From positions 88,184 through 152,183 of the forward strand of contig JBBRAE010000006.1 of the NCBI GenBank assembly GCA_038207085.1: a stretch of DNA of 64,000 bases, read 5' to 3'. The notes beneath the pieces were generated by a model, which was not told the DNA's origin, searched no databases, and saw only the letters and a list, made by a program, of their open reading frames with translations. Both the position numbers and the translations under genes were made by a program. Source of the DNA: Armatimonadota bacterium. GTDB taxonomy: Bacteria; Armatimonadota; UBA5829; DTLH01. Positions 1,966-62,973 of this stretch are shown one piece after another (the first letter of the stretch is position 1; each line of letters starts with the position of its first letter).

Positions 1966-3111
1966 ATGTCAGGACAGGATGGGTTTGATCTTAGCGGCCT
2001 CGAAAAGGCCTGCATACTGCTGATGTCCTACGGGACAACTGTGGCGGCGGAGGTGTTCAAGCACCTGACCGAGCCTGAGATCGAGCAGATTTCAGGCGCG
2101 ATTGTCAGGATGCAGAACGTCGATGCGACCTTGATGGGGTCGGTGCTCTCAGAGTTCGATTCGATAACATCAGGGGCAAGCGGCAGCGTGAGCGGCAAGA
2201 ACTTCGCCGCGCAGGTGCTCGAACAGGCGATGGGCTCGGAGAAAGCAAGCCAGATGCTCGATCGCGCAAATACGCCGGGCAAGGGACGGCCGTTTGGGTC
2301 GCTCTGGGACTTGAACCCGACTCAGTTCTCTCGGGTATTAAGCGACGAGCACCCCCAGATCGCGGCGCTCGTGCTCACATACCTGCCCGCGGCCAAGTCG
2401 GCGGCTGTTCTGGCTGAACTTGAGCCAGGACTGCAGGCGGAGGTTGCCCACAGGATATGCACGCTTGAAGAGGCCGATCCGGAAGTCCTGGTGGCGATCG
2501 AAGAGACGCTTCAGGCGAAGCTAAACGCCACCTCTACCCAGCAGACGGCGTCGGGCGGCCCGAAGACGCTCGTTGACATTTTGAACAACGCAGAGCGTGC
2601 GACCGAACAGAACATCCTGAACTCGCTTGCCGAAAACGACCCCGAGGTCGGCGAGCAGGTGCGGGATCTTATGTTTACTTTTGAAGACCTTCCCAAGCTT
2701 GAGGATCGAACTGTTCAGCTCGTTCTAAGGGAAGTCGATCAGGAGGATCTGCGGCTTGCTCTGAAGGGCGCGAGCGATGAGATTCAGCAGCTTGTATTCA
2801 AAAACATGTCCGAGCGTGCGGCTGAAATGCTCCGCGAAGACCTGGAGCTTGTAGGAAACGCGCGGCAGAAGGATGTCGAGACGTCACAGCAGAAGCTAGT
2901 GCTCGTCGTCCGAAGGCTGATTGCAACCGGTGAGGCGTCGCTCAAAGAAGAAGGCGCGGAGACCAAAACAAGCGAAGAAGACGAACTTGCAGGGTGGGGC
3001 GAGCTTGGTGACTTTGCTATGGCCGCCGAAGCCGCTGAGTCGGGGGAAACCTCGGAAGGAGCAGGAGAGACTGATGAGCAGCCTGATCAAGAAGTCGACC
3101 TTGCTGCCTAG
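1966..3111 (+). CDS. fliG: flagellar motor switch protein FliG with acidic C-terminal extension
   Basis: EHPQIAALVL, GGPK, MFTFEDL and NMSERAA motifs. Confidence 0.96.
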   Translation: MSGQDGFDLSGLEKACILLMSYGTTVAAEVFKHLTEPEIEQISGAIVRMQNVDATLMGSVLSEFDSITSGASGSVSGKNFAAQVLEQAMGSEKASQMLDRANTPGKGRPFGSLWDLNPTQFSRVLSDEHPQIAALVLTYLPAAKSAAVLAELEPGLQAEVAHRICTLEEADPEVLVAIEETLQAKLNATSTQQTASGGPKTLVDILNNAERATEQNILNSLAENDPEVGEQVRDLMFTFEDLPKLEDRTVQLVLREVDQEDLRLALKGASDEIQQLVFKNMSERAAEMLREDLELVGNARQKDVETSQQKLVLVVRRLIATGEASLKEEGAETKTSEEDELAGWGELGDFAMAAEAAESGETSEGAGETDEQPDQEVDLAA

Positions 3112-3778
3112 TGGAGTGGCGGTCGGCGAGTGCCTGATCGACCCTTCACGAGCAAGAGTGAGAATAGAGAGTTCGAGGCTGTCATCGTCCACCTCACCTG
3201 AGGCGCAGGCGATTATGATTGTCGAGACTGCGCGTCAGCAGGCGGCGGCGATCATCTCTGAGGCAAGTGAGCAGGCAGAAACAATTCGTGCTGAAGCGGC
3301 GAGCCAGGGTTACGATGCCGGGCTCGTTGAGCTTGAGGCTGAGCGGCGCGTGATCGCCGAGAAGATGGCGGGTTTGGAGGGTGAGATTGCCCGGGAGCTT
3401 GATGCGTTCTGGGCCAAAACCGAGCCTGAGGTGCTTGGGCTTGCGCTTGAGATCGCAAAAAAGGTCGTCAAGCGCGAGATCGAGCAGACCCCTGAGTTTA
3501 TCCTGGGGATGGTGCGCGCGGCAATTCGGCAGCTTCGGGACAGAGCAGATTTGAAGATACGAGTGAACCCGAATGATTACACCGTTGTGCGGGAGCGAAA
3601 AGAAGAGATTATGAGCTCGTGTGACGGGATCAGAAACATCGAGGTTATCGAGGACAGGCGCGTCGGCGACGGCGGATGCCTGATCGAGTCAGCCGGTGGG
3701 ACGCTCGACGCGCGGGTCGAGGCGCAGTTTAGTGAAGTTGAACGAGCTCTATTGGAGGCGGCGGACAGTGCCAGTTGA
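3074..3778 (+). CDS. fliH: flagellar assembly protein FliH
   Basis: ATG 3074 after AGGAGA; GYDAG repeat region and GGCLIES..GTLDARVE motif; lies between fliG and fliI. Confidence 0.9.
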   Translation: MSSLIKKSTLLPSGVAVGECLIDPSRARVRIESSRLSSSTSPEAQAIMIVETARQQAAAIISEASEQAETIRAEAASQGYDAGLVELEAERRVIAEKMAGLEGEIARELDAFWAKTEPEVLGLALEIAKKVVKREIEQTPEFILGMVRAAIRQLRDRADLKIRVNPNDYTVVRERKEEIMSSCDGIRNIEVIEDRRVGDGGCLIESAGGTLDARVEAQFSEVERALLEAADSAS

Positions 3779-5105
3779 GATGCGACGACCTAGTCTTGAG
3801 AGATACCTGCCGATAGTCGAGCGCCTTAGCCCGATCAAGTTGATCGGCAAGGTCTCGCACGTGGTCGGGGTAGTGGTGGAAAGCCGCGGGCCCTCGGCGC
3901 ACCTGGGTGAGGTCTGTGAGATTCACTGCAAGAGGAACGTCCCTCCGATTCTCGCTGAAGTCGTCGGGTTTCGTGACAACACCGTGCTTTTGATGGCGCT
4001 TGGTGAGATGGACGAAATCGCACCGGAAAGCGATGTGGTCGCTACGGGGAGTTCGCTCAAAGTCGGCGTCGGGCCGGGACTTCTTGGCCGGGTGATCGAC
4101 GGGCTCGGGCGACCGATAGACGGCCTTGGGCCGATCGACTACGAGTGCCAGACGCTTGTCAGCCGGACACCTCCGGCTCCGATGGACCGGCGAAGGATCA
4201 CCGAGCCGCTTGCGATGGGAGTCCGGGCGATCGATGCGGCGCTTACCTGCGGCAAAGGCCAGAGGGTTGGTATTTTCGCCGGCAGCGGGGTCGGGAAAAG
4301 CACGCTTCTTGGTATGATCGCGCGGAACACGGCAGCTGACGTGAACGTGATTGCGCTCATTGGTGAGCGTGGCCGCGAGGTTCGGGACTTTATAGAAAAA
4401 GATTTGGGGCCGGAAGGCCTTGCGCGCTCGGTTGTGGTCGTGGCGACATCGGACCAGGTCGCAGTGGCCCGGCTTCGAGGGGCGATGGTCGCGACTTCGA
4501 TCGCGGAGTATTTCAGGGACCAGGGCGCGGACGTTATGCTGATGATGGACTCGGTTACACGAGTCGCATGGGCTCAGCGGGAGATGGGGCTTGCCGTCGG
4601 TGAACCGCCTACGACCAGGGGATACACCCCCTCGGTCTTCGCGATGCTTCCAAGGCTCCTTGAGCGGGCGGGAACATCGTCCAAGGGCTCGATTACGGGG
4701 CTTTACACAGTTTTGGTAGACGGAGACGATATGAACGAGCCGGTCGCGGACGCTGTGCGAAGTATCCTCGACGGGCACATCGTGCTCTCTCGCGAACTCG
4801 CGCACAGGAACCATTATCCGGCGATCGACATCCTTCAGAGCGTCAGCCGACTTATGCCGGAGGTCAGCTCACCTGAGCACAAAGCCGGCGCGTCGGAGCT
4901 TAGGGAAGTGCTAGCGACTTACAAGTCGGCGGAAGATTTGATCAATATCGGCGCTTATGTCGATGGGAGCAACGTGGGGATCGACCACGCGAAAGCGCAC
5001 ATCGAGGCGGTAAACGGGTTCTTAAAGCAGCCTGTGACCGACCGCGCACCCTTTGAAGAGACTGCTTCAGCGATTGGGTCGCTGTTTGGAGAGCAAAAGC
5101 CATGA
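3768..5105 (+). CDS. fliI: flagellar export ATPase FliI
   Basis: Walker A GSGVGKS, DSVTR and GEPPTTRGYTPS motifs; GTG start after GGAGG. Confidence 0.97.
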   Translation: MPVEMRRPSLERYLPIVERLSPIKLIGKVSHVVGVVVESRGPSAHLGEVCEIHCKRNVPPILAEVVGFRDNTVLLMALGEMDEIAPESDVVATGSSLKVGVGPGLLGRVIDGLGRPIDGLGPIDYECQTLVSRTPPAPMDRRRITEPLAMGVRAIDAALTCGKGQRVGIFAGSGVGKSTLLGMIARNTAADVNVIALIGERGREVRDFIEKDLGPEGLARSVVVVATSDQVAVARLRGAMVATSIAEYFRDQGADVMLMMDSVTRVAWAQREMGLAVGEPPTTRGYTPSVFAMLPRLLERAGTSSKGSITGLYTVLVDGDDMNEPVADAVRSILDGHIVLSRELAHRNHYPAIDILQSVSRLMPEVSSPEHKAGASELREVLATYKSAEDLINIGAYVDGSNVGIDHAKAHIEAVNGFLKQPVTDRAPFEETASAIGSLFGEQKP

Positions 5106-5557
5106 AGAAGTTTAGTTTCGGGCTGCAGAAGGTGCTCGATTATCGTCAGACGCTTGAAGATATCAGGCTTGCAGAGCTTGCAGGGCTTCAGGCAGAGCAC
5201 GAGTGTGAGTCCTCAAGGCTTACGCGCATGACCCAGGTCCGGGAGGAGTTCAAGTGCCAGATGCGCGAGATGCTCGCCTCAGGCGACCCGGAGTACATCA
5301 AGCAGGCGAACGCCTATCTCCATGACCTGACCGAGCGGGTGCTTCTTCAGAAGGCGAAGCACGACGAGGTCGCCGCGCGCAAAGATGCCAAGACCGATGA
5401 AGTGGTCGAAGCCGCCAAAGACCGTAAAGCGCTTGAACGACTGCGGGAGTACAAGGTTGTCGAGCACAGACACGACGGTTTTCGCGAGGAACAGAAGTTT
5501 TTGGACGAGATTGCATCGGTCCGGCACAACAGAACGAATGAGGCGAGGGCTTCTTAG
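5102..5557 (+). CDS. fliJ: flagellar export protein FliJ
   Basis: MKKFSFGLQKVLDYR N-terminus and EQKFLDEIA C-terminus; overlaps fliI stop. Confidence 0.93.
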   Translation: MKKFSFGLQKVLDYRQTLEDIRLAELAGLQAEHECESSRLTRMTQVREEFKCQMREMLASGDPEYIKQANAYLHDLTERVLLQKAKHDEVAARKDAKTDEVVEAAKDRKALERLREYKVVEHRHDGFREEQKFLDEIASVRHNRTNEARAS

Positions 5558-5558
5558 A

Positions 5559-6080
5559 ATGTTTGAGCATCTTCAGGCTGTGCAGGCGAGGATCGCTGAG
5601 ATCGAGCGCAAGTTCGGTTCGGTGCGCGGGGTAGTGGAAAGCCCGGGAGCATCGAGCTTCAAGCAGGTGATGAGGCGCACGTGCTCCCCTCCTGCCGCGC
5701 CGTGTCCGACCGATCTTGAGCCGGTGATACAGGCTGCGGCAGCGAAGTACGGAGTCGATGCCGCGGTCGTAAAAGGCGTCATTCAGGCCGAGTCGGGGTT
5801 CAACGCGAACGCGGTCTCTCCGGTCGGCGCTCGGGGACTTATGCAGCTTATGCCGGGGACGGCGCGAGCGCTTGGAGTGGACCCGAGCGATCCCGAGGAG
5901 TGCATCGACGGCGGAACGAAATATTTGAAACAGATGATCGACCGGTTCGGCAGTCTCGAAAGCGGCCTCGCGGCCTACAACGCGGGCCCTTCGGCGGTGA
6001 CTCGCTACGGCGGAGTGCCCCCGTACACAGAGACGCAGAACTATGTCCGAAAGGTCGTCGGATATATCGATCAGTATTGA
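5559..6080 (+). CDS. lytic transglycosylase (SLT domain)
   Basis: ES catalytic motif, GLMQLMP, AYNAG and ETQNYV; ATG 5559 right after the fliJ stop. Confidence 0.93.
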   Translation: MFEHLQAVQARIAEIERKFGSVRGVVESPGASSFKQVMRRTCSPPAAPCPTDLEPVIQAAAAKYGVDAAVVKGVIQAESGFNANAVSPVGARGLMQLMPGTARALGVDPSDPEECIDGGTKYLKQMIDRFGSLESGLAAYNAGPSAVTRYGGVPPYTETQNYVRKVVGYIDQY

Positions 6081-6192
6081 TCGTAAAAGAGTCAGGCTGT
6101 GGTAGATAGACAGAGCTGGGCGGCGGTCTACTTACCACAGCCTCTCAAACCAGAAAAGGAGGTGCGTTAACATAGCACAAATCACTAACCTG

Positions 6193-7656
6193 ATGCCTGA
6201 TGCGTCGGCGGCTGCGGGGATCCTGGCGACGGGAGCCGTGCAAGCCGGGGCAGCAGAAGGCGGAAACAGCGGAGGGTCCGAGTTTCAGGGGTTGGTCGAA
6301 AAGCTGATGCAGGGACTTCAAGAACATTCTGGAGTCGAGAAACAGGCCGGACAGCAGGTCGGAACTGAGACGCAGGAGAAACCGGAAACAACGGTCGATC
6401 CAGCGGCGCAGTTAGCCTTCCTGTTGGGGTCTATGGGAGTGGTTCAGCCGGTGACTGAAAAAGCGCCGGATGAAGTTACAGTCGCTCCCAGCGAGACAGT
6501 TCCAGTGGCAATCGAAGCCTTGACAACTCAGCAGATCGCGCCAACGCCGGGGACAGAGACCACGGAGCAGGCGGAGACGCCTGCAGAAGAATCGACCAGC
6601 ACGCCGCTTGAAACGGGTGCAACAGCAATACCCCAAAAGGGTGAGGCATTGGCGCAGCCGGGCGTCACTCAACCGGCGTACGCACAGGCCGTCGCGGCGG
6701 CAACTCAGGTGGCCGAACAGGCTCCCATCGTGGAGAACGAGAAGACCACCGACGCACAGCAAGTCGTCGCGCAGACGACCGAAACTGTGGCGCAACCCGA
6801 CGTGTCGGAGTCCGGCAAGACTGACGCCCAAAAGGCTGAAGACAAAGACACCGGTGCAGAACGAAAGGCGGAGGAACATCCTCTGTTTGACGCTGCGCGG
6901 GAAGGGCTCCTTGTCGGCGCTGCCCTGGAGAACAGGGTTGGAACCGTCGATGCCAAGGCCGCGCAGGCCAAGGCTGATGCGGCGGGCGTGAGTGGGGGGA
7001 TTGATTCGGCGCTTTCGAGCAACAAGACGGATGAGATTCCTGCAGTTGAGTCCAAGGCAGAAGGCCAAGATACGTCGTCGGCTGGTCAGCAACAGGCGGC
7101 GACCAATTTCGCCCCGACCTTTGAGATGAAACATACGGCTGAGAAGGTCGCTGAACCGACCGGAGTGGGGCAGAACGTCCCTCAGCCCGAACAAACTATG
7201 AGCGCGCGGATGATGAACCAGATCGTGCGCTCGGTGAAGACTCACACCTTTGAAGGTGGAGCTGAAATGACGCTTCGGCTCGATCCGCCGCACCTTGGGC
7301 AGATCCAGATGAACGTTGCAGTCGCAGACGGCGCGGTTACCGCGTCGCTCAAGACGAGCACGGAGTCGGCGCGCCAGATTCTTCAGTCGGACCTTGGAAG
7401 TCTGAAGCAGATGCTCGCAGACGCCGGGGTCAAAGTGGACCAGGTGGATGTCTCAGTAAGCACCAACCTGCATCAGCAGGCGTGGAACCCGTATTCGGGT
7501 TCACAGAACGACGCTGCGGGGCATGGGCAGGGTCGCTCGGCGGGTTGGAGCGGAGCGCGAGGGCTTGGCGCAAACGCGGGGCCTGAGCTTCTCGGGGCTG
7601 CGGCGGCGCAGGCTCAAACGAGCTACGCAAGCGGACAGATAAACTTCCTGGCCTAG
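6193..7656 (+). CDS. fliK: flagellar hook-length control protein FliK
   Basis: low-complexity A/T/E/Q N-region, LRLDPPHLG motif; precedes flgD. Confidence 0.92.
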   Translation: MPDASAAAGILATGAVQAGAAEGGNSGGSEFQGLVEKLMQGLQEHSGVEKQAGQQVGTETQEKPETTVDPAAQLAFLLGSMGVVQPVTEKAPDEVTVAPSETVPVAIEALTTQQIAPTPGTETTEQAETPAEESTSTPLETGATAIPQKGEALAQPGVTQPAYAQAVAAATQVAEQAPIVENEKTTDAQQVVAQTTETVAQPDVSESGKTDAQKAEDKDTGAERKAEEHPLFDAAREGLLVGAALENRVGTVDAKAAQAKADAAGVSGGIDSALSSNKTDEIPAVESKAEGQDTSSAGQQQAATNFAPTFEMKHTAEKVAEPTGVGQNVPQPEQTMSARMMNQIVRSVKTHTFEGGAEMTLRLDPPHLGQIQMNVAVADGAVTASLKTSTESARQILQSDLGSLKQMLADAGVKVDQVDVSVSTNLHQQAWNPYSGSQNDAAGHGQGRSAGWSGARGLGANAGPELLGAAAAQAQTSYASGQINFLA

Positions 7657-7817
7657 TGTCGGATCAGCTTGATTCTTGTGCATTGGCAACTGTTGCTACG
7701 AAGCATCGCACGCGGCAGATACCGATGGACAAAGCACAATATTCAAGATAAGCGTGCACTAGACTCAGGAAGCTTCTTTGGGGCGGACTCTTTTGGGTTC
7801 GCCCCACAAATGGAGGA

Positions 7818-8474
7818 ATGGATTTGAATACATCAGCAGTAAGCGGATCTTCGGGTTCTTTGATGTCGAGCACCGGCACGGGTGCGCTTGACAGAAACGC
7901 ATTCCTGAAGCTGCTCATAACCCAGATGTCCAACCAGGACCCAATGAAGCCTACGGATGACACGGAGTTCGTCTCGCAGCTTGCTCAGTTCTCAAGCCTG
8001 GAGCAGATGCAGAATATGAACACCAACCTGGACAAGTTCGTCGGTGTTCAGACGCTCACTCAGGCTACGGGGTGGATCGGCAAGGCTATTCAGTGGGTCG
8101 ATGCCGCCAGTGGCAAGAATGTCGCTGGGCAGGTAAAGAGTGTTACGTTTGAGGACGGGGTACCGAGTCTCGTTGTGCCGATGAACGTGAGCGTCAAGGG
8201 GAGCGACGGCAAATATACCCAGCAGATTCAGGAATACAACGTCCCGATGAGCTCGGTGAACAACGTCTTTACTGTCGAAGAGACACAGACCGTGTCTTCA
8301 GCTCTAAGCTGGATCGGTCGAAATGTTACCGGCACCGAACTTGGCGGGACGAAGACTATCACCGGCAAGGTCACGGGAGTTGAGTTCCGCAACGGGGTTA
8401 CAGTTCTTAACATGAAAGTCGGTGACACCGATAAGCAGATCGCACTTGCGACTGTGCAGAAGGTGGCTGAGTAG
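7818..8474 (+). CDS. flgD: flagellar hook capping protein FlgD
   Basis: FLKLLITQMSNQDPMKP and SQLAQFSSLEQM motifs. Confidence 0.95.
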   Translation: MDLNTSAVSGSSGSLMSSTGTGALDRNAFLKLLITQMSNQDPMKPTDDTEFVSQLAQFSSLEQMQNMNTNLDKFVGVQTLTQATGWIGKAIQWVDAASGKNVAGQVKSVTFEDGVPSLVVPMNVSVKGSDGKYTQQIQEYNVPMSSVNNVFTVEETQTVSSALSWIGRNVTGTELGGTKTITGKVTGVEFRNGVTVLNMKVGDTDKQIALATVQKVAE

Positions 8475-8504
8475 TCCGACAGTTTTACGTTAACTTGAAG
8501 CATG

Positions 8505-8541
8505 GGCCGGAGCAGACAATTTTGTTTGCTCCGGCCTTTTT
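8505..8541 (+). terminator. rho-independent terminator after flgD
   Basis: GGCCGGAGCAGACA/TGTTTGCTCCGGCC stem followed by TTTTT. Confidence 0.85.
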
Positions 8542-8791
8542 CTCGTTTGCTACTAAAGATACAGGCTGGGAATGTCATTATCTACATGTGGCGCAGCTTG
8601 CGTCGTCGATGGTGTTATCACGATTGGAAATGCAAGCGGCAAAGGCGCGATTTATTGAATGAGGATGAGACTGAGACTGAGACTAGTCCGGGGGATTACT
8701 TATGGCGGTTTAATGGGAGTTTGATGGCGGGCTACAGACCTGCAAAGATGGAACCGGGATTGCAATTTCGGGCAATCACATGGAGGTAGCT

Positions 8792-9328
8792 ATGAAAGTT
8801 GAACAGATGAGCGGTCCTCTTGCCGGAAATAATGTGGGGGAGGGGCCTCGGGTAATCGGAGGCAAGTTCCTCACATTTTTTCTGGCAGGAGAAGAATACG
8901 GACTTGAGATTCTAAAAGTCCAGGAGATTATCGGGATGATGGCGATTACGCCAGTGCCCAGGACGCCTGAGTTCGTGCGGGGGGTCGTCAACCTGCGGGG
9001 CAAGGTGATTCCTGTCGTCGACCTCAGGCTGAAGCTTGAAATGCCGAGCATTGATGCGACCGAAGAGACTTGCATCATCTTTGTCAGGGCGCAGGGGATC
9101 GAGATGGGGATCATCGTCGACTCGGTCTCGGAAGTGCTGCACATGCCGACTACGGACATCGACCCTGCGCCGTCCTTTGGCGCGTGCGTCCGGTCCGACT
9201 ATATTCTGGGGATCGGCAAAACCGACGGCAGCGTCAGGATTATCTTGGATGTGGACCGCGTGCTTACGGTGCAGGACGCAGCCGAGATCGTGGACGTGGC
9301 CGTTCCTGAAGAAGCATTGGCGGCGTAA
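8792..9328 (+). CDS. cheW: chemotaxis adaptor CheW
   Basis: FLTFFLAGEEYG, GVVNLRGKVIPVVDLR and IIVDSVSEV motifs; GGAGG RBS. Confidence 0.95.
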   Translation: MKVEQMSGPLAGNNVGEGPRVIGGKFLTFFLAGEEYGLEILKVQEIIGMMAITPVPRTPEFVRGVVNLRGKVIPVVDLRLKLEMPSIDATEETCIIFVRAQGIEMGIIVDSVSEVLHMPTTDIDPAPSFGACVRSDYILGIGKTDGSVRIILDVDRVLTVQDAAEIVDVAVPEEALAA

Positions 9329-9440
9329 ATGAAGTATTGGCCTTAACCTGATTCTTTGTAAGGCTCTTCTTTGTGCGGCAGTCCAAGAGGTCTGAAGATC
9401 ACAGCGATTCAATATCTCGACAGAGACGCAAAGGAGTGAG

Positions 9441-9944
9441 ATGTTAGTTCGTGAAAAGGGAGTAAAGCACGTCGTGGGGATCGCCGATATGAAGCTATCG
9501 GCCAGCGACGGTGACCAGATCATCACGCACGCTCTTGGCAGTTGCCTTGGAATTACGGTGTATGACCCGGTCGCGGGAGCTGGTGGCCTGCTTCATATCA
9601 TGCTGCCAATGTCCACGATAGATCCTGCCAAAGCGGCGGACAATCCGTTGATGTTTGTAGACACCGGAGTGCCGTTGCTCTTCAAAGAGTGTTACAAGCT
9701 CGGCGCGCGCAAGGAGCGCATGGTAGTCAAGGTGGCAGGCGGCGCATGCCTGCACGGCAATGAGGATACCGATTTCTTTGGCATCGGCAAACGAAACTTC
9801 ACGATGCTAAGGAAGCTGTTATGGAAAAACGGCGTGCTGCTCGAATCCTACGAGGTGGGAGGCGGCATATCTCGGACGATGTCCATGGATATCGGCTCGG
9901 GACAGGTGACGGTTCGGTCAAACAACGAAGTAAGACCGCTTTGA
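9441..9944 (+). CDS. cheD: chemoreceptor glutamine deamidase CheD
   Basis: LGSCLG, HIMLP, KVAGGA and IGKRN motifs. Confidence 0.95.
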   Translation: MLVREKGVKHVVGIADMKLSASDGDQIITHALGSCLGITVYDPVAGAGGLLHIMLPMSTIDPAKAADNPLMFVDTGVPLLFKECYKLGARKERMVVKVAGGACLHGNEDTDFFGIGKRNFTMLRKLLWKNGVLLESYEVGGGISRTMSMDIGSGQVTVRSNNEVRPL

Positions 9945-9975
9945 CTTTTGTGAAGTTGACATAAGGAGTTAAGAC

Positions 9976-10404
9976 GTGGCACTGAATGTCCTGGTGGTGG
10001 ACGACAGTCTGGTGATGAGATCGATGATAATCAAGACACTGCGCTTGAGCGGTATACCGCTTGGGGATGTGCTTCAGGCGTCAAATGGCGCTGAGGGGCT
10101 CGCGGTGCTTGATGAGAGCTGGATCGACCTGGCCCTGGTTGACATAAACATGCCCGTGATGAACGGGGAGGAGATGATCGACCGGGTGAGGCAGAACCCT
10201 GCGACGGCGGACCTGCCTGTGGTCGTAATCTCAACCGAAAGCAGCGAGACCCGCATTGAGCTGCTTCAAAGAAAAGGCGCGGGGTTTGTACACAAGCCCT
10301 TTACCCCCGAGATACTGCGGGAGAAGATAATTAACATAACTGGAGTCAGCGATGATTGCACATTCGGCGAAGGATCCGTGCAGAGCGACGGCTGCGACTT
10401 TTGA
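9976..10404 (+). CDS. CheY-like single-domain response regulator
   Basis: VVDDS, DINMP, ST and KPF receiver motifs. Confidence 0.92.
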   Translation: MALNVLVVDDSLVMRSMIIKTLRLSGIPLGDVLQASNGAEGLAVLDESWIDLALVDINMPVMNGEEMIDRVRQNPATADLPVVVISTESSETRIELLQRKGAGFVHKPFTPEILREKIINITGVSDDCTFGEGSVQSDGCDF

Positions 10405-10565
10405 GTAGCTTGGGTTTCTTTACCCAAGCCCCGATATAGACGCCGAGCCGATACCGACTGCGAGGCGGTCGCAGGAGTGACGTTTTCCGGCCCGGTGAGC
10501 CGGCGGCCTCTGTGCGGCTGTCGCTTGATGAGGGGCAGGCCGACGTGAAGCTCTGCGTAGAGCGT
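10352..10565 (+). pseudogene. cheX: degenerate CheX-like phosphatase gene
   Basis: ATG 10352 overlapping the receiver gene reads ...AATFE*LGFLYPSP (TAG at 10406); other frames give GVTFSGPVS and LDEGQADVKL; pieces resemble CheX-family proteins from memory, central part apparently missing. Confidence 0.6.
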
Positions 10566-10632
10566 CCGATCTATTTTCTTCACTTCGTAAAGGCCGGTGT
10601 TCGTCCCGGCCATTTTATTGTACGCCCCCGGA

Positions 10633-10658
10633 GGGCGGACACATTGGTCCGCCCCTAC
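10633..10658 (-). repeat. GTAG-type REP-like palindrome, copy 1
   Basis: minus strand GTAGGGGCGGACCAATGTGTCCGCCC; related copies at 16497 and 35267. Confidence 0.8.
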
Positions 10659-10673
10659 GTTCCCCAAACTAGC

Positions 10674-10693
10674 CTGGCACGGGAATTGCTGTA
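10674..10693 (+). promoter_or_regulatory. sigma-54 (-24/-12) promoter for the TIGR02530-like gene and flgE
   Basis: CTGGCACGGGAATTGCTGTA matches TGGCAC-N5-TTGC exactly. Confidence 0.85.
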
Positions 10694-10791
10694 ATAGACC
10701 CGAGGCGAATGGACCGCGTTTGTGATGCGAACAAGACAAGCATCAAACGCTCGATCAGACGGGCGAAATCTACTATGCGCGGTGGTGAGGC

Positions 10792-11169
10792 ATGATAAAC
10801 AGAGTTAACCTCACAAGTCCAATACGGAGCGTTCAAGGTGGGGCACAAACTCCCAACGGCACTTCCAAGCCGGGGAACTTTGCCGCAACACTTGCACGCG
10901 AGACAGAGCGGCAGCAGTCGCTCAAGATATCCTCTCACGCCCAAAAGCGCCTCAACTCGTCTCAGGTGACGCTTAGTGACCAGGACATGCAGCGGATCGA
11001 CGGAGCGGTTAGCCGGGCCGGTGAAAAGGGCTCAAACCAGTCGCTGATCATGCTCGACAACCTGGCGCTTGTAGTGAGCGTCAAGAACCGTGTCGTCATC
11101 ACGGCGGTCGACGAGGCGCGTCAAAGCGAGGGAGTATTCACAAATATCGACAGCGTGGTTATCGCTTAG
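10792..11169 (+). CDS. flagellar operon protein (TIGR02530-like)
   Basis: SSHAQKRL, ALVVSVKNRVVITA and VFTNIDSVVI motifs; precedes flgE. Confidence 0.88.
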   Translation: MINRVNLTSPIRSVQGGAQTPNGTSKPGNFAATLARETERQQSLKISSHAQKRLNSSQVTLSDQDMQRIDGAVSRAGEKGSNQSLIMLDNLALVVSVKNRVVITAVDEARQSEGVFTNIDSVVIA

Positions 11170-11236
11170 CGAGGAGGCAGTTCAAAAACAAATTTCTTGA
11201 CAACCAGCTCAGGGCAGGATGATCCCAGAGCCAGAT

Positions 11237-11319
11237 GAGCCGGACCTCGAACGAGGAGGCTCCGCGCATGGCCGCTACTCGGTCGGCGCAAAATGAGTAG
11301 GGTCTGATACTTCAGGCCC
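11237..11319 (+). promoter_or_regulatory. structured flgE leader (three hairpins)
   Basis: GAGCC-gga-CCTC-gaac-GAGG-a-GGCTC; CTACTC/GAGTAG; GGGTCTGA/TCAGGCCC just before the GGAGG RBS. Confidence 0.45.
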
Positions 11320-11343
11320 AAATCCATGGAGGTCAATTAACAA

Positions 11344-12606
11344 ATGATTCAGGCGATGTATAACAGCGTTTCCGGTCTGCGGGCGCATAAGCAGGAGATG
11401 GACGTTATCGCGAACAATATCGCGAACGTAAATACAGTCGGCTTCAAATCGAGCCGAGCTACATTCAAAGAAATGCTGAGTGAAACTCTAAGAGGCGCAA
11501 CAGCCCCTAAGGCAAACTCCGCAGGTGGCTCGGTCGGTGGAACCAACCCCGTGCAGGTTGGTCTTGGAACCACTATCGGTTCTATCGATTCCAACATGAC
11601 GCAGGGGTCGCTCCTGGCAACAGGCAAACCCACCGACGTCGCAATTGAAGGCAACGGCTTTCTGATGCTTGGAGACGGTGTTGGGAAATACTACACAAGA
11701 GACGGCGCGTTCCAGCTTGACGCAGAAGGCAACGTGGTCGCAGCGGGCTCGGGGCTTAAGGTTCTGGGGTGGAGCGCCGACCCGACAACGGGCATCATCG
11801 ATGATACCCAGCCGATCACCCCGAGCACGGGGCTCAAACTGCAGGTCGGACACCTTGCGATGGCAAGACAGACCTCGGAGATGGCATTCAGCGGAAACCT
11901 GAACTCTTCGACTCCTGCAGGTGAGATATACGCGACAGGCGCACAGATCTACGACTCGCTCGGCACGCGCCATAACCTGAACATCAAGTTTACCAAGCTC
12001 GGCGGGCCAGGCCAGTGGTTCTGGGAGGCGACAAGTCCCGACCAGGCCGTTGGGTCGACCGCAGGAAACGGCACCATTTCGTTTGGCGCCGACGGCCGCT
12101 GTCTTACCGGGAGTGGGTCGGCCGTTCTTACCCTCGCAAACGCCAACGGAGCGGTGAACCCGCTTCGCGTCGCTCTTGATTTTTCGCCGATGAAACAGCT
12201 TTCCGGTGACGCTACGGCAAGTCCTACTTCCCAGGATGGTTTGTCCCTGGGTGTTCTTGCGAGTTTTTCGGTTGGTAAGGACGGAGTCGTCTCCGGTATG
12301 TTTACCAACGGTCTTACACAGAAGCTGGCGAAAATCGCCCTTGCTCAGTTCAGCAACCCTGCAGGTCTCGCAAGGTCCGGTAACAACCAGCTCACAGAAA
12401 CAAGCAACTCCGGCCTGCCGCAGATAGGTCAGCCTGGAGCGGGAAGCCTTGGAGCCATAGCCGCAGGCTTCCTTGAGTCATCGAATGTCGACCTGCCAAC
12501 GGAGTTCGCCAACATGATCGTCGCACAGCGCGGCTTCCAGGCAAACTCACGAGTCATCACGACATCAGATGAACTCCTCCAGGAACTGGTTCAGCTGAAG
12601 CGGTAA
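11344..12606 (+). CDS. flgE: flagellar hook protein FlgE
   Basis: ANNIANVNTVGFK, YTRDGAF and LESSNVDL...AQRGFQANSR motifs. Confidence 0.97.
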   Translation: MIQAMYNSVSGLRAHKQEMDVIANNIANVNTVGFKSSRATFKEMLSETLRGATAPKANSAGGSVGGTNPVQVGLGTTIGSIDSNMTQGSLLATGKPTDVAIEGNGFLMLGDGVGKYYTRDGAFQLDAEGNVVAAGSGLKVLGWSADPTTGIIDDTQPITPSTGLKLQVGHLAMARQTSEMAFSGNLNSSTPAGEIYATGAQIYDSLGTRHNLNIKFTKLGGPGQWFWEATSPDQAVGSTAGNGTISFGADGRCLTGSGSAVLTLANANGAVNPLRVALDFSPMKQLSGDATASPTSQDGLSLGVLASFSVGKDGVVSGMFTNGLTQKLAKIALAQFSNPAGLARSGNNQLTETSNSGLPQIGQPGAGSLGAIAAGFLESSNVDLPTEFANMIVAQRGFQANSRVITTSDELLQELVQLKR

Positions 12607-12616
12607 TAGCCGCCTT

Positions 12617-12651
12617 GAGTAGCCCGCCTCGGGTGCGGGCTACTCTATTTT
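12617..12651 (+). terminator. hairpin/terminator after flgE
   Basis: GAGTAGCCCGC/GCGGGCTACTC stem followed by TATTTT. Confidence 0.7.
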
Positions 12652-12664
12652 AAAGGAATATCTG

Positions 12665-12883
12665 ATGATACATGTTCATCTACTCAACGATAACAAGATA
12701 GTGCTTAACTCCGACCTGATCGAGATGATCGAGGCGACGCCGGACACGGTAATATCGCTTTCGACTGGCAAAAAGGTGATAATTCGGGAGTCGGTGGAGG
12801 AGTTGATCTCTATGGTGGTCGAATATCGCAAAATGCTCACTCGGCCTATCGAGGAGCGCTGCCAAGAGAAGAAGGCCGCTTAA
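12665..12883 (+). CDS. flbD: flagellar protein FlbD (SwrD family)
   Basis: LNSDLIEMIEATPDTVISL motif; lies between flgE and motA. Confidence 0.92.
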   Translation: MIHVHLLNDNKIVLNSDLIEMIEATPDTVISLSTGKKVIIRESVEELISMVVEYRKMLTRPIEERCQEKKAA

Positions 12884-12888
12884 GACTT

Positions 12889-13677
12889 ATGGACTTCGCA
12901 ACAATAATCGGACTAATTCTTGCATGGGGCGCGCTTACCGTTGCGCTTGTGATGGAAGGTGGCAAGGCTGATACTCTGATCAATCCTTCGGCGCTCATTC
13001 TGGTGCTCGGTGGGACGGTCGGGGCTACGCTCGTGTCGTTCTCGATCAAGCAAGTCGGCAGCCTGCCCTCTATTGTGAGGAACGCGTTCTTCACCGAGGA
13101 CAGTGACCCGGCGCAGGTCATCAGGATGATGGTGGCCTTCGCAAGGCGCGCGCGGCGCGACGGGATCCTGGCCCTTGAAGAAGAGGTTCGCCGCGTCGAC
13201 AACCGTTTTCTTCGCAAAGGCGTGCGGCTGGTGATCGATGGGACCCCCTCTGAGATGGTGCGGGAGATCCTTGAGACCGAGATCGTGTCGCTTCAGGAAC
13301 GGCACAAAGTGGGCGAGCAGATGTTTTCTACAATGGGAGGCTTTGCGCCGACCCTTGGGATCATCGGCACTGTCATGGGCCTCATCCATATGCTTAACAA
13401 CCTGAACGAGCCTGCGAAAATGGGCCCGGCTATAGCGACCGCGTTTGTCGCGACGCTCTACGGTGTTGCGCTCGCGAACCTGGTATTTTTGCCTATATCA
13501 GCTAAGCTCAAAGTAAGGACGAGCGAGGAAATTCTTTCCTACGATATGATGCTTGAAGGGATTCTTTCGATCCAAGCCGGGGACAACCCCCGTATGGTCG
13601 AGACCAAGATGCTTGCTTATCTGCCGCCGAAGTTGCGATGGGAGATGGTGAGCAAGGACGTGGCAAAGGCGGCTTAG
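12889..13677 (+). CDS. motA: flagellar stator protein MotA
   Basis: ARRDGILALE, APTLGIIGTVMGLI and AFVATLYG motifs. Confidence 0.96.
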   Translation: MDFATIIGLILAWGALTVALVMEGGKADTLINPSALILVLGGTVGATLVSFSIKQVGSLPSIVRNAFFTEDSDPAQVIRMMVAFARRARRDGILALEEEVRRVDNRFLRKGVRLVIDGTPSEMVREILETEIVSLQERHKVGEQMFSTMGGFAPTLGIIGTVMGLIHMLNNLNEPAKMGPAIATAFVATLYGVALANLVFLPISAKLKVRTSEEILSYDMMLEGILSIQAGDNPRMVETKMLAYLPPKLRWEMVSKDVAKAA

Positions 13678-13678
13678 A

Positions 13679-14892: not shown

Positions 14893-15000
14893 TCGCGATA
14901 TTCACCTCCGTGGTCCTAATGGGCCACTCCCAGAGGCTGGCGCAGTAGCGCCACCAGGTGATGGCGCTAACTGCGCCGTTGGACTGATAGGTTGTATATT

Positions 15001-16023: not shown

Positions 16024-16051
16024 TTTTTTAACCGAAAGGAAGTTGCAACAC

Positions 16052-16453: not shown

Positions 16454-16496
16454 GTAGCGTTACTGAACATCGATTCTTGGGTGGTGTGCCGGAGAA

Positions 16497-58243: not shown

Positions 58244-60139
58244 ATGCGCTTTGCATTGACAATAGTGATGGGGTTAAAGATGTATTTCAAGAGCTTATCG
58301 CGTGAGGTCGTATCATCTGACATGGAAGTCTTGACTACGGTTGGACAGTCTATATCTATATCGGAACTTCTTTCGGCGCTTTCAGCGCTGACGGAGGCGC
58401 TTGAGTCGATCAACCAGGGTGTTGAGCCCAGGTTCATAGAGGTTGGCGAGAGTCTTCAAAGCGTCTACTCGCAGGCCGCGGGACTTGAGCGCGAGGTGGC
58501 AGGTGTTGCCAGCACCATCAACCGGGACAACAGCGCCAGTTTTCTGTGTGTTACCGGGGACCTCGCGGCCAGGTCGGTTTCGACCCTCCAAACGAACCAG
58601 GAAGAGATCGCAGACCGGCTCGCCAACGTCGGGACGATCGCAGCCGAGCTTCGAGAGCTGAGAAGCCATAGCACCGTGCTCGAGCGAATCGCAAGGCAGC
58701 TTAGAGTAGTCAGCGTGCAGTTTGCAGTGGAAGTATCCCGAACATGCGACTCGACTACCTCGTTTACAGCCTTCACAAAAGAACTCCGCAGGCTGGCCGA
58801 CAACGTCTCCGAGCTGTCAGAAAGCATCGCAGATGACTCATCGGCAAGCGAAAAGAGACAGCGGGCGGCGTACACACTGCTTACCGACGGTTGGGCTAAG
58901 CTGAACAGACTTACATCCGAGGCCGAGCGCGCGCTTCGAGCGGCGATCGAGAACATCGACCGGATGTGTGGAATGTCGGTGAAAGCGCTCGACAGCATCG
59001 CCGGGCACTCGGGGGTGGTCTCCAAGTGCATAAGCAGCATGGTGACCTCCATTCAGTTTCACGACATCACCCGTCAGCAGGTGGAGCATATCGTTCAGGC
59101 AGTCCGGGACGTGGAAGCGGAATGCAAAGATGGCCAGGACGAAGCGCAGTCTGACCTGGTGCTTGGCCGGACCCACACTATGCTCAGACTCCAGCGCGCG
59201 CAGCTAGAGCACGTGATCTCGATGATCAGGGACGCTCACGACTCTCTTGAGTCCTCGTTCAACCAAGTCGGGCGCGAGTCGACGGACATCGCTTCGAGCC
59301 TTTCGCAGCTTGCTCGTGGAGAGCAGGATTCAAGCGTCGATAACGACACCTTTGAAGGCCTCAGGCGGACGCTGAAGTCGCTCTTGTCGCTTCTTGGGAG
59401 CGGTCGAGATCTCGGTGTGCAGACCGGGAACGTGGCATTGCAGGCCGCTGAAACCTCAGCGCAGCTTTCATTATATCTGGCGAAGGTCAGGACTATCAAC
59501 TACGATTTGAAACTCAAGGCACTAAACGCCATAGTGAAGTCGATCAGTCTGGATGAGCAGGGCAGATCGCTTTCGGTGCTGGCGGGAGAGGTAATGAGGC
59601 TATCAAAGGACTGCGATGATCACGTTGTGAGCATGGTGCAGGGCATAGAGTCGATTCTGGGGCTCTCGGAGGGAAGCCGGTCAGGGCAGATCTCCGAAAG
59701 CGGCGAAGAGGACCCGGCGGGTGCTCTAGCCTCAGGGATCGACGACATGGACCAGTGCTATGCGGGACTGGTGCAGTCTTCTAAAACGGCCCGGGGACGG
59801 GCAGAGGACATGGGGGAGACGATCGAGCAGATAGAGCAGGGGCTTGTGTTCCTGCTGGAGCTGATTGAAGACCTCTCGGGGTGCACCAGCGAGTTCGACA
59901 CGGTTATCGAGATGCTTGAGCCCTGGGCACGCACAGGAGCAGACGCGGCTGGTGACCTTGCCGGCCGACACGCGCAGAGATACACGATGGACAAAGAGCG
60001 GGAGATTCATCTCACCGCCCTTGGCCTATTTCCTGAGGAGGTAGACTCGATGGACGAGCAATCTACCGGCCGGGATGACACCTTGCCTGGGGCAGAGGCA
60101 AACGATTCTGAGTTCGGAGACAACATTGAACTCTTCTGA
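58244..60139 (+). CDS. soluble MCP-like chemotaxis protein
   Basis: no TM; ALNA.VKS...EQGR.L.VLA.EV hairpin-like motif, IQFHDITRQQVEH, C-terminal GDNIELF; start uncertain. Confidence 0.78.
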   Translation: MRFALTIVMGLKMYFKSLSREVVSSDMEVLTTVGQSISISELLSALSALTEALESINQGVEPRFIEVGESLQSVYSQAAGLEREVAGVASTINRDNSASFLCVTGDLAARSVSTLQTNQEEIADRLANVGTIAAELRELRSHSTVLERIARQLRVVSVQFAVEVSRTCDSTTSFTAFTKELRRLADNVSELSESIADDSSASEKRQRAAYTLLTDGWAKLNRLTSEAERALRAAIENIDRMCGMSVKALDSIAGHSGVVSKCISSMVTSIQFHDITRQQVEHIVQAVRDVEAECKDGQDEAQSDLVLGRTHTMLRLQRAQLEHVISMIRDAHDSLESSFNQVGRESTDIASSLSQLARGEQDSSVDNDTFEGLRRTLKSLLSLLGSGRDLGVQTGNVALQAAETSAQLSLYLAKVRTINYDLKLKALNAIVKSISLDEQGRSLSVLAGEVMRLSKDCDDHVVSMVQGIESILGLSEGSRSGQISESGEEDPAGALASGIDDMDQCYAGLVQSSKTARGRAEDMGETIEQIEQGLVFLLELIEDLSGCTSEFDTVIEMLEPWARTGADAAGDLAGRHAQRYTMDKEREIHLTALGLFPEEVDSMDEQSTGRDDTLPGAEANDSEFGDNIELF

Positions 60140-60475
60140 ATGGAGCAAGCAATGGAACTGACACACACTGATGAATCCGGGAACACGGTAATGAAGTTCG
60201 AGGGGGCTTTGTTGGTCAGCGAGCTGGCTGGTATCAGCGCGGAGCTGTCCGAGAGCGTCGGAGGAAGCGGCGACTTGGTAATGGACATCGCGCTGGTGAC
60301 CGATTGCGATACTGCCGGGGCTCAGGCTCTCTGCACGGTGGCGAAAACGGCGCGGGGCGCCGGGCGCCGCGTAGCTGTCACTGGTGCAAGTGCATCTATC
60401 GTGGAGAGCATGAAACGGGTCGGCATACTCCTTGAGGATGTGGTAGACAGCCTGGAGGTGTCCGTCGATGGCTAA
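60140..60475 (+). CDS. STAS domain protein
   Basis: D...V..CDTAGAQ.L motif; precedes cheY. Confidence 0.85.
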   Translation: MEQAMELTHTDESGNTVMKFEGALLVSELAGISAELSESVGGSGDLVMDIALVTDCDTAGAQALCTVAKTARGAGRRVAVTGASASIVESMKRVGILLEDVVDSLEVSVDG

Positions 60476-60836
60476 GACTATCATGACCGCGGATGATTCG
60501 GCAAGCATCAGGCAGATGGTCGGTTTTACGCTTCGTGAGGCCGGCTACAGCGTGATTGAAGCTATCGACGGGGCTGATGCGATCGGCAAGTGTGCGGGGA
60601 CGTCGCCGGACATGGTCATAACCGACCTCAACATGCCAAACGTCGACGGCATAGGGCTTATCCGTGAGCTTCGGGCGATGCCGCAGTGCAAGTTCATTCC
60701 TATCATTATGTTAACTACTGAGTCGGCTGACGATAAGAAACAGGCCGGCAAAGCTGCAGGGGCGACGGGGTGGATAATCAAGCCATTCCAGCCCGAGCAG
60801 CTTCTCGCGGTCGTCCGAAAGGTGCTCCGCGATTAG
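60468..60836 (+). CDS. cheY: chemotaxis response regulator CheY
   Basis: DDSASIRQMV, TDLNMP, LTTES and GATGWIIKPF; precedes cheA. Confidence 0.92.
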   Translation: MAKTIMTADDSASIRQMVGFTLREAGYSVIEAIDGADAIGKCAGTSPDMVITDLNMPNVDGIGLIRELRAMPQCKFIPIIMLTTESADDKKQAGKAAGATGWIIKPFQPEQLLAVVRKVLRD

Positions 60837-60849
60837 GGAGAATATGTAA

Positions 60850-62973
60850 ATGGGCGAGACCGACAGGTATATAGAAACTTTTCGCATGGAGGCCGATGAA
60901 CTGCTCGCGGACGTTGAAGATATCGTGCTTGCGATAGAGGACGATCCAAGCAACCGGAGCAACATCGACCGACTGTTCAGGGCGATGCACACTATCAAAG
61001 GATCTGGAGCTATGTTCGGCTTCGACGACGTGGCGGCGTTTACGCACCACGTTGAAACGACGCTTGACGTGGTGCGTTCCGGGGGAATCGGGATCGGACG
61101 TGAGCTGATCGACTTGATTCTCGCAGCCCGGGACCAGATAACTGCGATGATGGCGGCTGCGGGTGGTGGGCCTGTGGTCGACGAAGGGGAAAGCAGGCGC
61201 ATAGTTGAGGGGCTGGGTGCACTGCTGCCGAAGGGGGATAGCCTAAAAGCCGAGGAGGCAGGGGGTTCCAGCTCGGGAGGGGACGCGGGCGTCGTGGGGG
61301 ACGCAAGCGCCGAGATGGCAAGTTACAAGATCGTCTTTGCGCCGGACCCGGGGATATTTCTCACGGGGATGGACCCGTCGCTTCTCCTGGAGGAGCTTCG
61401 GGAGCTTGGTGAGTGTCAGATTATCGCGCTTACCGAGAACCTTCCGGCGCTTGAGATGGTCGATCCGGAGAAGTGCTACCTCGCGTGGCAGATCAACCTG
61501 CGCACCGACAAAGGGGTCGATGCGATCAGGGACGTCTTTATATTCGTCGAGGACACGAGCCGGATTGAGATCGAACAGCTTCCAGAGTTACAGGTGTCTG
61601 CTTCGGATGATGAGCCGAAGAAGCTTGGACAGATTCTGGTTGAGAAGGGTCTCGCGACCGAGGCCCAGGTCCGAGGGGCGCTCGGCAAGCAGAAAATGCT
61701 TGGCGATATTCTCGTTGGGTCCGGGGTAGTCGGCGCGGAAACCCTAAACTCAGCCCTGGCCGAGCAGAAGACGCAAGAAAAGGCGAAAGGGGCCGAGAAG
61801 TCCGAGACGCTCAGGGTAGCATCGGACAAGCTCGACGTATTGGTAAACCTCGTCGGCGAGCTGGTTATCAACCAGGCGAGGCTTTCACAGGTGTCGGGTG
61901 CAGTTGAAAACTCGGAGTTGCTTGCAGCTGTCGAGGAAGTCGAGAGGCTCACAGGCGAGCTTCGAGACGTAGTTCTTAACATAAGGATGATGCCGATCGG
62001 CACAACGTTCGGCAGGTTCAAGCGGCTAGTGCGGGATACTTCGGTGGAACTCGGTAAAGAGATCGATCTTGTCACAGAGGGGGCTGAGACCGAGATCGAC
62101 AAGACCGTGATCGACCGGCTCGCGGACCCGCTTGTTCATCTCATCCGCAATAGCATCGACCACGCAATAGAGTCTCCTGAGGCCCGGTTGGGGATGGGCA
62201 AGCCGAGGAAGGGCACCATTCTTCTTTCGGCTGCGCACAGAGGGACAAACGTGGTTATCACCGTCAAAGACGACGGCAAGGGCCTCGATGCAGAGGTCAT
62301 AAAGGCTAAAGCCATTGAACGTGGACTGATCTCCGCCGACCAGGACTTGAGCGAAAAAGAGATATTCGCACTGATCTTTGCGCCTGGTTTTTCTACGGCG
62401 CAAAATGTGACCAGTATGTCCGGACGAGGTGTAGGGATGGATGTGGTCAGGCGAGAGATCGACGCGCTTCGTGGGAACGTCAGCGTCACAAGCGAAAAGG
62501 GGAAGGGCACGACAGTAGATCTGTCCCTGCCTCTCACGCTTGCGATCATCGACGGGCTGCTCGTGGCGGTAAATAATGAGCGGTTCGTCATTCCACTTTC
62601 AACAGTGGAGGAGTGTCTGGAACTGACAGGCGCAAGGTTCGCAATGAGCAGAGAACGCAACGTTATACAGGTCAGGGGGGAACCGGTACCGTTTGTGCGA
62701 CTGCGCGAGATGTTCGGGATCGAGGGAACCGAGCCGGACCTTGAAGAGACGATCGTGGTGGGGGTAGGAGAATCCCGCATCGGAATAGTTGTCGATCACG
62801 TAATCGGCGACCACCAGACCGTCATCAAGTCGCTTGGAAAAGCCTATCGGCATGTCGAGGGGCTGTCAGGGGCTACGATAATGGGGGACGGGAGCGTGGC
62901 ACTGATACTTGACGTGCCCGGGCTCGTAGACTGCGCGCTGCAAGCTGAGGATGCGGCGCTAAAGGCAGCATAG
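60850..62973 (+). CDS. cheA: chemotaxis histidine kinase CheA
   Basis: HPt FRAMHTIKG, HLIRNSIDH, GFSTA...SGRGVGMDVV, LPLTLAII and a CheW-like domain. Confidence 0.97.
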   Translation: MGETDRYIETFRMEADELLADVEDIVLAIEDDPSNRSNIDRLFRAMHTIKGSGAMFGFDDVAAFTHHVETTLDVVRSGGIGIGRELIDLILAARDQITAMMAAAGGGPVVDEGESRRIVEGLGALLPKGDSLKAEEAGGSSSGGDAGVVGDASAEMASYKIVFAPDPGIFLTGMDPSLLLEELRELGECQIIALTENLPALEMVDPEKCYLAWQINLRTDKGVDAIRDVFIFVEDTSRIEIEQLPELQVSASDDEPKKLGQILVEKGLATEAQVRGALGKQKMLGDILVGSGVVGAETLNSALAEQKTQEKAKGAEKSETLRVASDKLDVLVNLVGELVINQARLSQVSGAVENSELLAAVEEVERLTGELRDVVLNIRMMPIGTTFGRFKRLVRDTSVELGKEIDLVTEGAETEIDKTVIDRLADPLVHLIRNSIDHAIESPEARLGMGKPRKGTILLSAAHRGTNVVITVKDDGKGLDAEVIKAKAIERGLISADQDLSEKEIFALIFAPGFSTAQNVTSMSGRGVGMDVVRREIDALRGNVSVTSEKGKGTTVDLSLPLTLAIIDGLLVAVNNERFVIPLSTVEECLELTGARFAMSRERNVIQVRGEPVPFVRLREMFGIEGTEPDLEETIVVGVGESRIGIVVDHVIGDHQTVIKSLGKAYRHVEGLSGATIMGDGSVALILDVPGLVDCALQAEDAALKAA

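Follow-up and report, generated by a model that had tools for sequence, protein, structure and literature searches.

The window analyzed here is a 64,000-nucleotide stretch of an Armatimonadota draft genome (3.35 Mb, 57% G+C, 83 contigs) that corresponds to positions 88,184–152,183 of contig C6 (JBBRAE010000006.1). It contains a flagellar operon, a chemotaxis cluster and non-motility genes between them (Table 1), with family identities assigned by Pfam profile matches. Eight of its 37 motility proteins end in two alanines (Ala-Ala, hereafter AA), namely FliG, CheW, FlbD, the stator protein MotA, a YcgR-like PilZ protein, the sigma factor FliA, a DUF6115/DUF2802 protein and CheA. An original prediction from this DNA had named these eight as carriers of a candidate degron for the protease ClpXP, pointing out that eight different codon pairs encode the ends and that none of 24 non-motility proteins shares them. 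All eight proteins were recovered at the same positions with the same ends, the codon pairs are exactly the eight listed, and the non-motility proteins lack the end (0/20 called genes and 0/4 further open reading frames (ORFs) at 27999–58033).

Genes were called with a purpose-written periodic-Markov caller, which is crude (82% coding) and makes the denominators approximate. The terminal dipeptide is robust to the choice of start codon because the C-terminus is set by the frame and the stop codon alone. The proportion of 8/37 corresponds to a binomial p of 2e-8 against the non-motility rate of 1.29%, and to p = 2e-6 against the whole-genome rate of 60/2576. The eight AA ends lie 4–57 residues past the last Pfam domain. 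In FliG, the conserved FliG_C domain stops at residue 324; the 57 residues beyond it form an acidic tail, variable in length, with LAA at its end. The 5´ end of flbD is uncertain because its Pfam match begins at profile position 13.

Table 1. Features of the window; positions count from the first nucleotide of the 64,000-nucleotide stretch.
Feature	Position	Strand	Basis	C-terminus or remark
Flagellar operon fliE–fliA	14..27620	+	Pfam	
fliG	1966..3111	+	Pfam FliG_N/M/C	DLAA; AA codons 3103–3108
cheW	8780..9328	+	Pfam CheW, residues 29–163 of 182	ALAA; AA codons 9320–9325
cheW, cheD and receiver gene	8780–10404			inside the flagellar operon, between flgD and flgE
flbD	~12701..12883	+	Pfam FlbD	KKAA; 5´ end uncertain
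motA (stator)	12889..13677	+	Pfam MotA_N and MotA_ExbB	AKAA
YcgR-like PilZ protein	24752..25804	+	Pfam PilZNR and PilZ	KDAA
fliA (sigma-28)	26051..26812	+	Pfam Sigma70 r2/r3/r4	VMAA
DUF6115/DUF2802 protein	27153..27620	+	weak Pfam matches	KLAA; end of the flagellar operon
TPR protein	27999–29732		Pfam	closes the flagellar operon
Three ORFs	29722–32337			448, 286 and 106 residues
Non-motility genes	~32–58 kb		gene calls	
HicA toxin gene	33513–33710	-		
Chemotaxis cluster	58322..64000	+	Pfam	MCP-like, STAS protein, CheY, CheA, MCP; window end is the end of contig C6
cheA	60850..62973	+	Pfam Hpt, H-kinase_dim, HATPase_c, CheW	LKAA
MCP gene	63050–64000			cut at the contig end

AA is the commonest terminal dipeptide in the whole genome, found in 61 of 2524 proteins of a first gene set, where single-position frequencies predict 0.9%, and in 60 of 2576 of a second. 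The ends are concentrated in two classes. Motility and chemotaxis proteins account for 16/70 (one-sided Fisher p = 1.9e-14), in a list that was built partly by following AA-ended genes, so that some untagged chemotaxis-like genes may be absent from it. Proteins of cyclic di-GMP (c-di-GMP) metabolism account for 12/18 (p = 2.9e-18), and the two classes joined give p = 4e-27. The remaining called proteins contribute 32/2488 (1.29%, with one likely mobile element counted twice), and the AA excess lies almost wholly within the two classes. The genome-wide frequency is therefore not near 20%, the background being only 1.3%. AA is the sole enriched terminal dipeptide in the motility set (the runner-up, AS, reaches p = 0.006), and the flagellar gene set itself, which is spread over two clusters, looks complete. 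The claim of a motility-specific end thus stands as a class-specific enrichment and was drawn too narrowly, since nearly all c-di-GMP enzymes are also included.

A Pfam scan of the 52 AA-ended proteins outside the window identified 8 flagellar or chemotaxis proteins, 12 proteins of c-di-GMP turnover and 1 PilM among them. The first group consists of two FliW proteins, a methyl-accepting chemotaxis protein (MCP) with its CheW, a CheW with its CheA, a second MotA and one CheB. The second comprises seven GGDEF-HD_5 proteins, one REC-HD_5 protein, three PAS-GGDEF-EAL proteins and one sigma70-GGDEF fusion. Counted by family over the genome, AA ends are carried by 11/13 GGDEF, 3/3 EAL, 8/11 HD_5, 5/5 CheW-domain and 2/2 FliW proteins, by 2/2 MotA proteins (the second copy on contig C21), by 2/3 MCPs and by 1/4 CheB-like proteins. 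The second PilZ protein of the genome, on contig C22, is untagged.

The AA end is not general to signalling proteins, as non-CheA kinases, other sigma factors and most receiver (REC) proteins are untagged. Both tagged histidine kinases (2/15) are CheA, and the other HATPase kinases have none (0/13). Within the sigma-70 family the end is confined to FliA and the sigma-GGDEF fusion (2/13; remaining members 0/11). Four of 31 receiver proteins end in AA, three of which are CheB, REC-GGDEF-HD_5 and REC-HD_5 proteins, leaving 1/28 outside the tagged classes; among ABC ATPases the count is 1/31.

The location of flagellar C-termini is textbook knowledge, and on these assignments AA ends occur in 0/21 exported or periplasmic-ended flagellar proteins versus 16/49 cytoplasmic-ended ones (two clusters; Fisher p = 0.0013). 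The exported or periplasmic-ended set comprises the rod, hook, filament and rings together with MotB, FliL and the lytic enzyme; in the window operon its untagged members are FliE, FliK, FlgD, FlgE, MotB, FliL and the SLT lytic enzyme. Reading of the ends by a periplasmic tail-specific protease was ruled out, as every tagged end is cytoplasmic. A DNA-level motif or stop-codon context was also ruled out: the codon pairs are diverse, and all three stop codons are used in background proportions.

The collection holds no second genome of the genus, and the closest comparisons come from family relatives with 56–59% identity in FliG, whose ends were read in the exact frame of each family match. FliG ends in LAA in 4/4 family relatives, where the tail is acidic and interrupted by large indels and the terminal LAA is invariant in all five family members; the end is absent in six order-level relatives from the other two families. 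FliA keeps AA in 3/3 family orthologues. The PilZ protein has it in one of two relatives (G001 ends in KAA; G002 lacks AA). FlhB ends in AA in three family relatives and FliN in one, neither of which is tagged in this genome. The expected conservation in orthologues was thus borne out for FliG, FliA and, as shown below, CheW/CheA; it was partial for the PilZ protein, and it failed for FlbD, MotA and the DUF6115 protein. Within the proposed set of rotor, stator, brake, sigma factor and signalling core, CheW/CheA keep the end across the order and the choice of tagged motor proteins varies by lineage; in G013, from another family, MotA, FliN and FlhA carry it.

Conservation is broader in the signalling proteins. 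GGDEF proteins end in AA in 31/45 cases among all matches in the four family relatives and, in the order's two remaining families, in 20/26 cases (the full 24 matches from three genomes and one best match from each of two more), which gives 51/71 across the order. The corresponding counts in the order are 24/27 complete CheW/CheA proteins (28 loci read of 64 matches listed, one cut by a contig end), 17/25 complete MCPs (28 loci read of 42 matches, three cut) and 24/26 FliW proteins (26 loci read of 38 matches, after removal of the copy in this genome and of three fragmentary hits). The AA-ended GGDEF proteins of this genome form 40 reciprocal best-hit pairs with proteins of seven relatives, and the partner also ends in AA in 36 of them; the other four end in VA (three) or AQ (one). 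The six residues preceding AA in the same 40 pairs are identical in just 32/240 positions (13%), which indicates purifying selection confined to the alanine pair. Neither this genome nor any of the seven relatives carries the tag in one GGDEF orthogroup; in another, four relatives have it and the copy here ends in VAS.

These comparisons bear on whether the AA end is a by-product without function, arising from chance, composition, paralogue inheritance or termination context at the stop codon. GGDEF-HD-GYP paralogues could inherit one ancestral end, the pattern was picked post hoc by a pattern-scanning reader, and three of the window tags are lineage-specific. We nevertheless consider a by-product highly improbable: the enrichment reaches p = 1e-14 to 1e-18 versus the rest of the proteome for this dipeptide only, the tagged proteins have unrelated folds (FliG, CheW, FliW, MotA, FliA, GGDEF, EAL), the alanines persist in orthologue pairs whose flanks do not, and neither the many codon pairs nor the stop codons point to termination context. 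In addition, the enrichment recurs in 800 kb of a genome from another family, described below.

Three further observations concern individual members of the tagged families. The sigma-70 (r2/r3/r4)-GGDEF fusion (C34:12848–14191) lies just after a type IV pilus cluster (pilM-N-O, secretin, ATPases) and is present in all seven relatives examined (55–68% identity), always with an AA end. The cheW, cheD and receiver genes of the window find no match in the syntenic operons of four family relatives, and the trio therefore looks like a lineage-specific insertion. RecA, which was meant as a negative control, has two paralogues in this genome, one AA-ended (C4:87485–88513) and one at C5:128454–129473. 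All four relatives' RecA proteins that are at least 75% identical to the AA-ended paralogue also end in AA, whereas the other RecA copies have acidic ends (0/20). The second group thus behaves as a negative control should, and the AA-ended paralogue may be a further member of the tagged set.

Beyond the order, AA ends become patchy. Among the best 120 of 7854 homologues of one PAS-GGDEF-EAL protein, AA is found in 23/27 at an identity of at least 48% and in 9/93 below 48%. In other families of the phylum, with one best-scoring locus per genome, 4/26 GGDEF and 10/26 CheW proteins carry the end. The comparison of the order with the phylum indicates that the tag is near-universal in the order and patchy elsewhere in the phylum. 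A representative search with the window CheW yielded AA in 10/150 proteins, a set dominated by multi-CheW-domain proteins of unknown origin that offers a rough baseline only. In G013, a genome from another family, 10 of 600 called genes in two arbitrary 400-kb stretches end in AA; the nine scanned with Pfam are an HD_5 protein, MotA, FliN, FlhA, a small TPR protein, YebC, a lyase and two proteins without a family. The small TPR protein (TPR_11, 131–135 residues) is AA-ended both in this genome (C5:137966–138361) and in G013 (C1:2156266–2156673). No candidate AA reader was found near its gene on C5, where the neighbours are housekeeping genes.

The tag thus exists, is class-specific, is limited to cytoplasmic ends and is under purifying selection, and a machinery that could read it is present. 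We consider it probable (about 60%) that terminal AA acts as an ssrA-like C-degron, encoded in the genome, for proteins of the motility and c-di-GMP network, read most likely by ClpXP; the reading, the resulting degradation and its purpose are what we infer from the pattern. In this genome clpP adjoins clpX on contig C2. ClpX has 420 residues with a zinc finger, GYVG at 147 and RKH at 229, and its loops (GYVG, the pore-2 stretch and RKH) are identical to those of the solved ClpX chain 9ndj_F. Residues Tyr153, Val154, Thr199, Val202, Arg228 and His230 of these loops in Escherichia coli ClpX touch the Ala-Ala-COO- of ssrA (PMC7652416). In a screen of random C-terminal tags in E. coli, 91% of the 100 best tags ended in Ala-Ala, and the consistently strong tags, which restored near-normal growth, all needed strains with ClpXP (PMC10862746).

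Related systems that would yield free AA ends are encoded in this order. The tags of transfer-messenger RNA (tmRNA) of eight relatives, from all three families, end in AA, as YALAA (five genomes), YAHAA, FALAA or AMAA, and an RqcH-type NFACT_N protein is encoded in this genome. The CheW of G086, from another family of the phylum, ends in ..DYALAA, with its last five residues equal to the YALAA of the five tmRNA tags. The AA end described here resembles the ssrA tag, natural ClpX degrons of C-motif 1, which end in ...LAA-COOH, and RqcH tails in its free C-terminal Ala-Ala, in the AA-ended tmRNA tags of the relatives, in the conserved ClpX loops and in the presence of an RqcH-like protein. It differs in that the alanine codons stand in the gene itself directly before the stop codon and are not added after ribosome stalling, that dozens of native proteins of one functional class carry it, and that the preceding residue is mostly Lys, Arg, Gln, Glu or Asp rather than Leu.

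On this model, selection keeps the tag on nearly all c-di-GMP synthases and phosphodiesterases (GGDEF, EAL and HD-GYP-type) and on MCPs, CheW, CheA, one CheB and FliW. It also keeps the tag on a lineage-variable choice of flagellar proteins from the motor and its regulation, which in this genome are FliG, MotA, FlbD, the YcgR-like brake and FliA. The tag sits at the end of a poorly conserved tail that may be exposed. ClpXP would be the likeliest reader, as for the free Ala-Ala ends of tmRNA tags and RqcH alanine tails, with membrane-bound targets perhaps shared with FtsH or a further AAA+ protease. Tagged proteins would be short-lived, or the copies outside arrays and motors would be destroyed, which would permit a fast and joint reset of the motility and c-di-GMP network. 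One use of such a system may be the originally proposed coordinated destruction at a motile-to-sessile switch.

Several observations weigh against a C-degron read by ClpXP. No tmRNA was found in this assembly with ARAGORN or RF00023 (tRNA-sized hits only); the gene is present in 11 of 12 relatives and probably lies in an assembly gap here. The SspB adaptor (PF04386), the sole adaptor looked for, was not found in this genome. According to the E. coli screen, AA is necessary and not sufficient, 39% of AA-ended random tags are weak, and a preceding Leu helps (PMC10862746). Leu is not favoured before AA in this genome (K 13, L 11 and R 8 of 60), and in the AA-ended GGDEF tails of relatives a hand count gave Lys or Arg in 25/51, an acidic residue in 9 and Leu in 4. 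AA ends are not depleted in other proteins, where 32 were seen and ~18 are expected from single-residue frequencies, so AA cannot act as a strong degron everywhere and without condition. The AA ends of the window FlbD and MotA are absent in four family orthologues each, and that of the DUF6115 protein is absent in three. Finally, a destruction tag on FliG, an abundant structural protein, would be costly unless assembly hides the tail. Given the Lys or Arg before AA, the lack of depletion elsewhere and the lineage-specific tags, a weak or conditional degron is expected rather than a strong constitutive one, and it might be masked in complexes or need an adaptor or a certain protease load.

The main reader of the degron could instead be another AAA+ protease, either FtsH, for the HAMP-GGDEF-HD-GYP proteins, MCPs and MotA, or Lon or ClpCP. 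Many tagged proteins are membrane-bound with cytoplasmic ends, including HAMP and CHASE4 architectures, MCPs and MotA. In this genome the AA end is also found on LpxC, whose E. coli counterpart is a substrate of FtsH via its C-terminal tail. Moreover, the ssrA tag is recognizable by four of the five ATP-dependent proteases of E. coli (PMC10862746). This assignment is improbable in our estimate, as the same tag is borne by soluble CheW, FliW, FliA and CheB, the ClpX recognition loops are conserved, and the strong C-terminal degrons of the E. coli screen needed ClpXP and no other protease (PMC10862746).

A non-proteolytic role was also considered, in which AA would be a docking or address tag for a TPR- or PDZ-type partner that gathers c-di-GMP enzymes, chemoreceptor arrays and motors at one site. 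The tagged set does form one functional module, a TPR protein closes the flagellar operon, a small AA-ended TPR_11 protein occurs here and in G013, and AA is not depleted from other proteins. C-terminal peptide tethers are also found on MCPs of other bacteria, where they are pentapeptides of the NWETF type. The untagged MCPs of the order form a separate class with a conserved acidic stretch followed by ..LQEF, ..LGEF or ..LESF. A tether of this kind resembles the AA end as a short C-terminal motif on MCPs, with a role apart from signalling. In contrast, the AA-ended MCPs have RKKAA-like tails without the aromatic motif, and AA is also found on non-receptors. Two alanines with freely varying neighbours offer little binding specificity, no reader turned up, and housekeeping genes surround the small TPR gene. 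To our knowledge, a free Ala-Ala end has no firmly established readers other than proteases, which counts further against docking. Taken together, we regard a docking tag as rather doubtful, with much the same standing as a protease other than ClpXP. MCPs of the ..LQEF class were seen at six loci in relatives and at C58:8802–10055 in this genome, and their end resembles the tether peptide of CheR/CheB.

The AA-ended proteins, some 30 or more per genome, with all c-di-GMP enzymes, the chemosensory arrays, FliW and some motor parts among them, might constitute one proteolytic regulon that shares its reader with tmRNA tags and RqcH alanine tails. This extension is tentative and on balance unlikely. 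It would follow that tagged proteins compete for one reader, so that all would become more or less stable together, depending on how much protease is free or on a single adaptor. The swim-or-settle network could in this way be switched en bloc by translation stress or growth arrest, with no transcriptional control.

Other observations concern the AA ends outside the two classes and the remainder of the window. The ORFs C70:1–459 and C82:2488–3495, both on short contigs, end alike in ERTIAA; the C82 ORF is a serine recombinase (Pfam Recombinase and Zn_ribbon_recom) and the C70 ORF has no Pfam match, and they are likely copies of one mobile element. Two HicB-like antitoxins outside the window (C23:21404–21643 and C26:18675–18890) end in AA, which fits labile antitoxins; the window carries a HicA toxin gene. 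Downstream of the flagellar operon, three ORFs with low coding scores occupy the lowest-G+C part of the window (0.50). One of them has a weak Pfam match (Cu_amine_oxidN1) and the other two have no match, and the segment may be foreign or fast-evolving DNA. Contig C8 opens (2–271) with an MCP tail ending in ERAA beside a full-length MCP of the same end, and the break at the end of C6, which cuts the last MCP gene of the window, probably lies in repeated MCP paralogues.

A close known parallel is the swarmer-to-stalked programme of Caulobacter crescentus, with the adaptors CpdR, RcdA and PopA. Through an adaptor hierarchy, Caulobacter ClpXP degrades McpA, McpB, PdeA, TipF, FliF and CtrA, and the loss of chemoreceptors, of a c-di-GMP phosphodiesterase and of flagellar proteins is tied to a motile-to-sessile change (PMC8973945). 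The AA ends would imply degradation of this kind here. The signals and adaptors of Caulobacter are heterogeneous, and the McpA signal is an internal AAL, 15 residues away from the terminal GWEEF (PMC10782952). In this genome, by contrast, a uniform two-residue end is found on most GGDEF, EAL and HD-GYP proteins and on CheA, CheW, MCPs and FliW.

In E. coli, PdeH (via its N-terminus) and FlhDC are degraded by ClpXP, and FliZ and CsgD by Lon (PMC12974527). The theme is alike, as motility and c-di-GMP regulators are unstable there, and here the AA tag would have the corresponding effect. The difference is that the E. coli cascade involves few regulators with differing degrons and no C-terminal tag common to enzymes, receptors and motor parts. 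The open-access literature searched yielded no account of an Ala-Ala end common to GGDEF, EAL, HD-GYP, CheW, CheA or FliW proteins.

Caulobacter and E. coli are known to degrade individual motility or c-di-GMP regulators, each by its own signal. Here one minimal tag, readable from sequence, marks most c-di-GMP enzymes and the chemotaxis core order-wide. If this tag is a degron, it would define a natural regulon post-translationally by a common C-terminus. Protease substrates would then be predictable from the genomes of uncultured bacteria, and the coordination of many parallel c-di-GMP enzymes would become directly testable.

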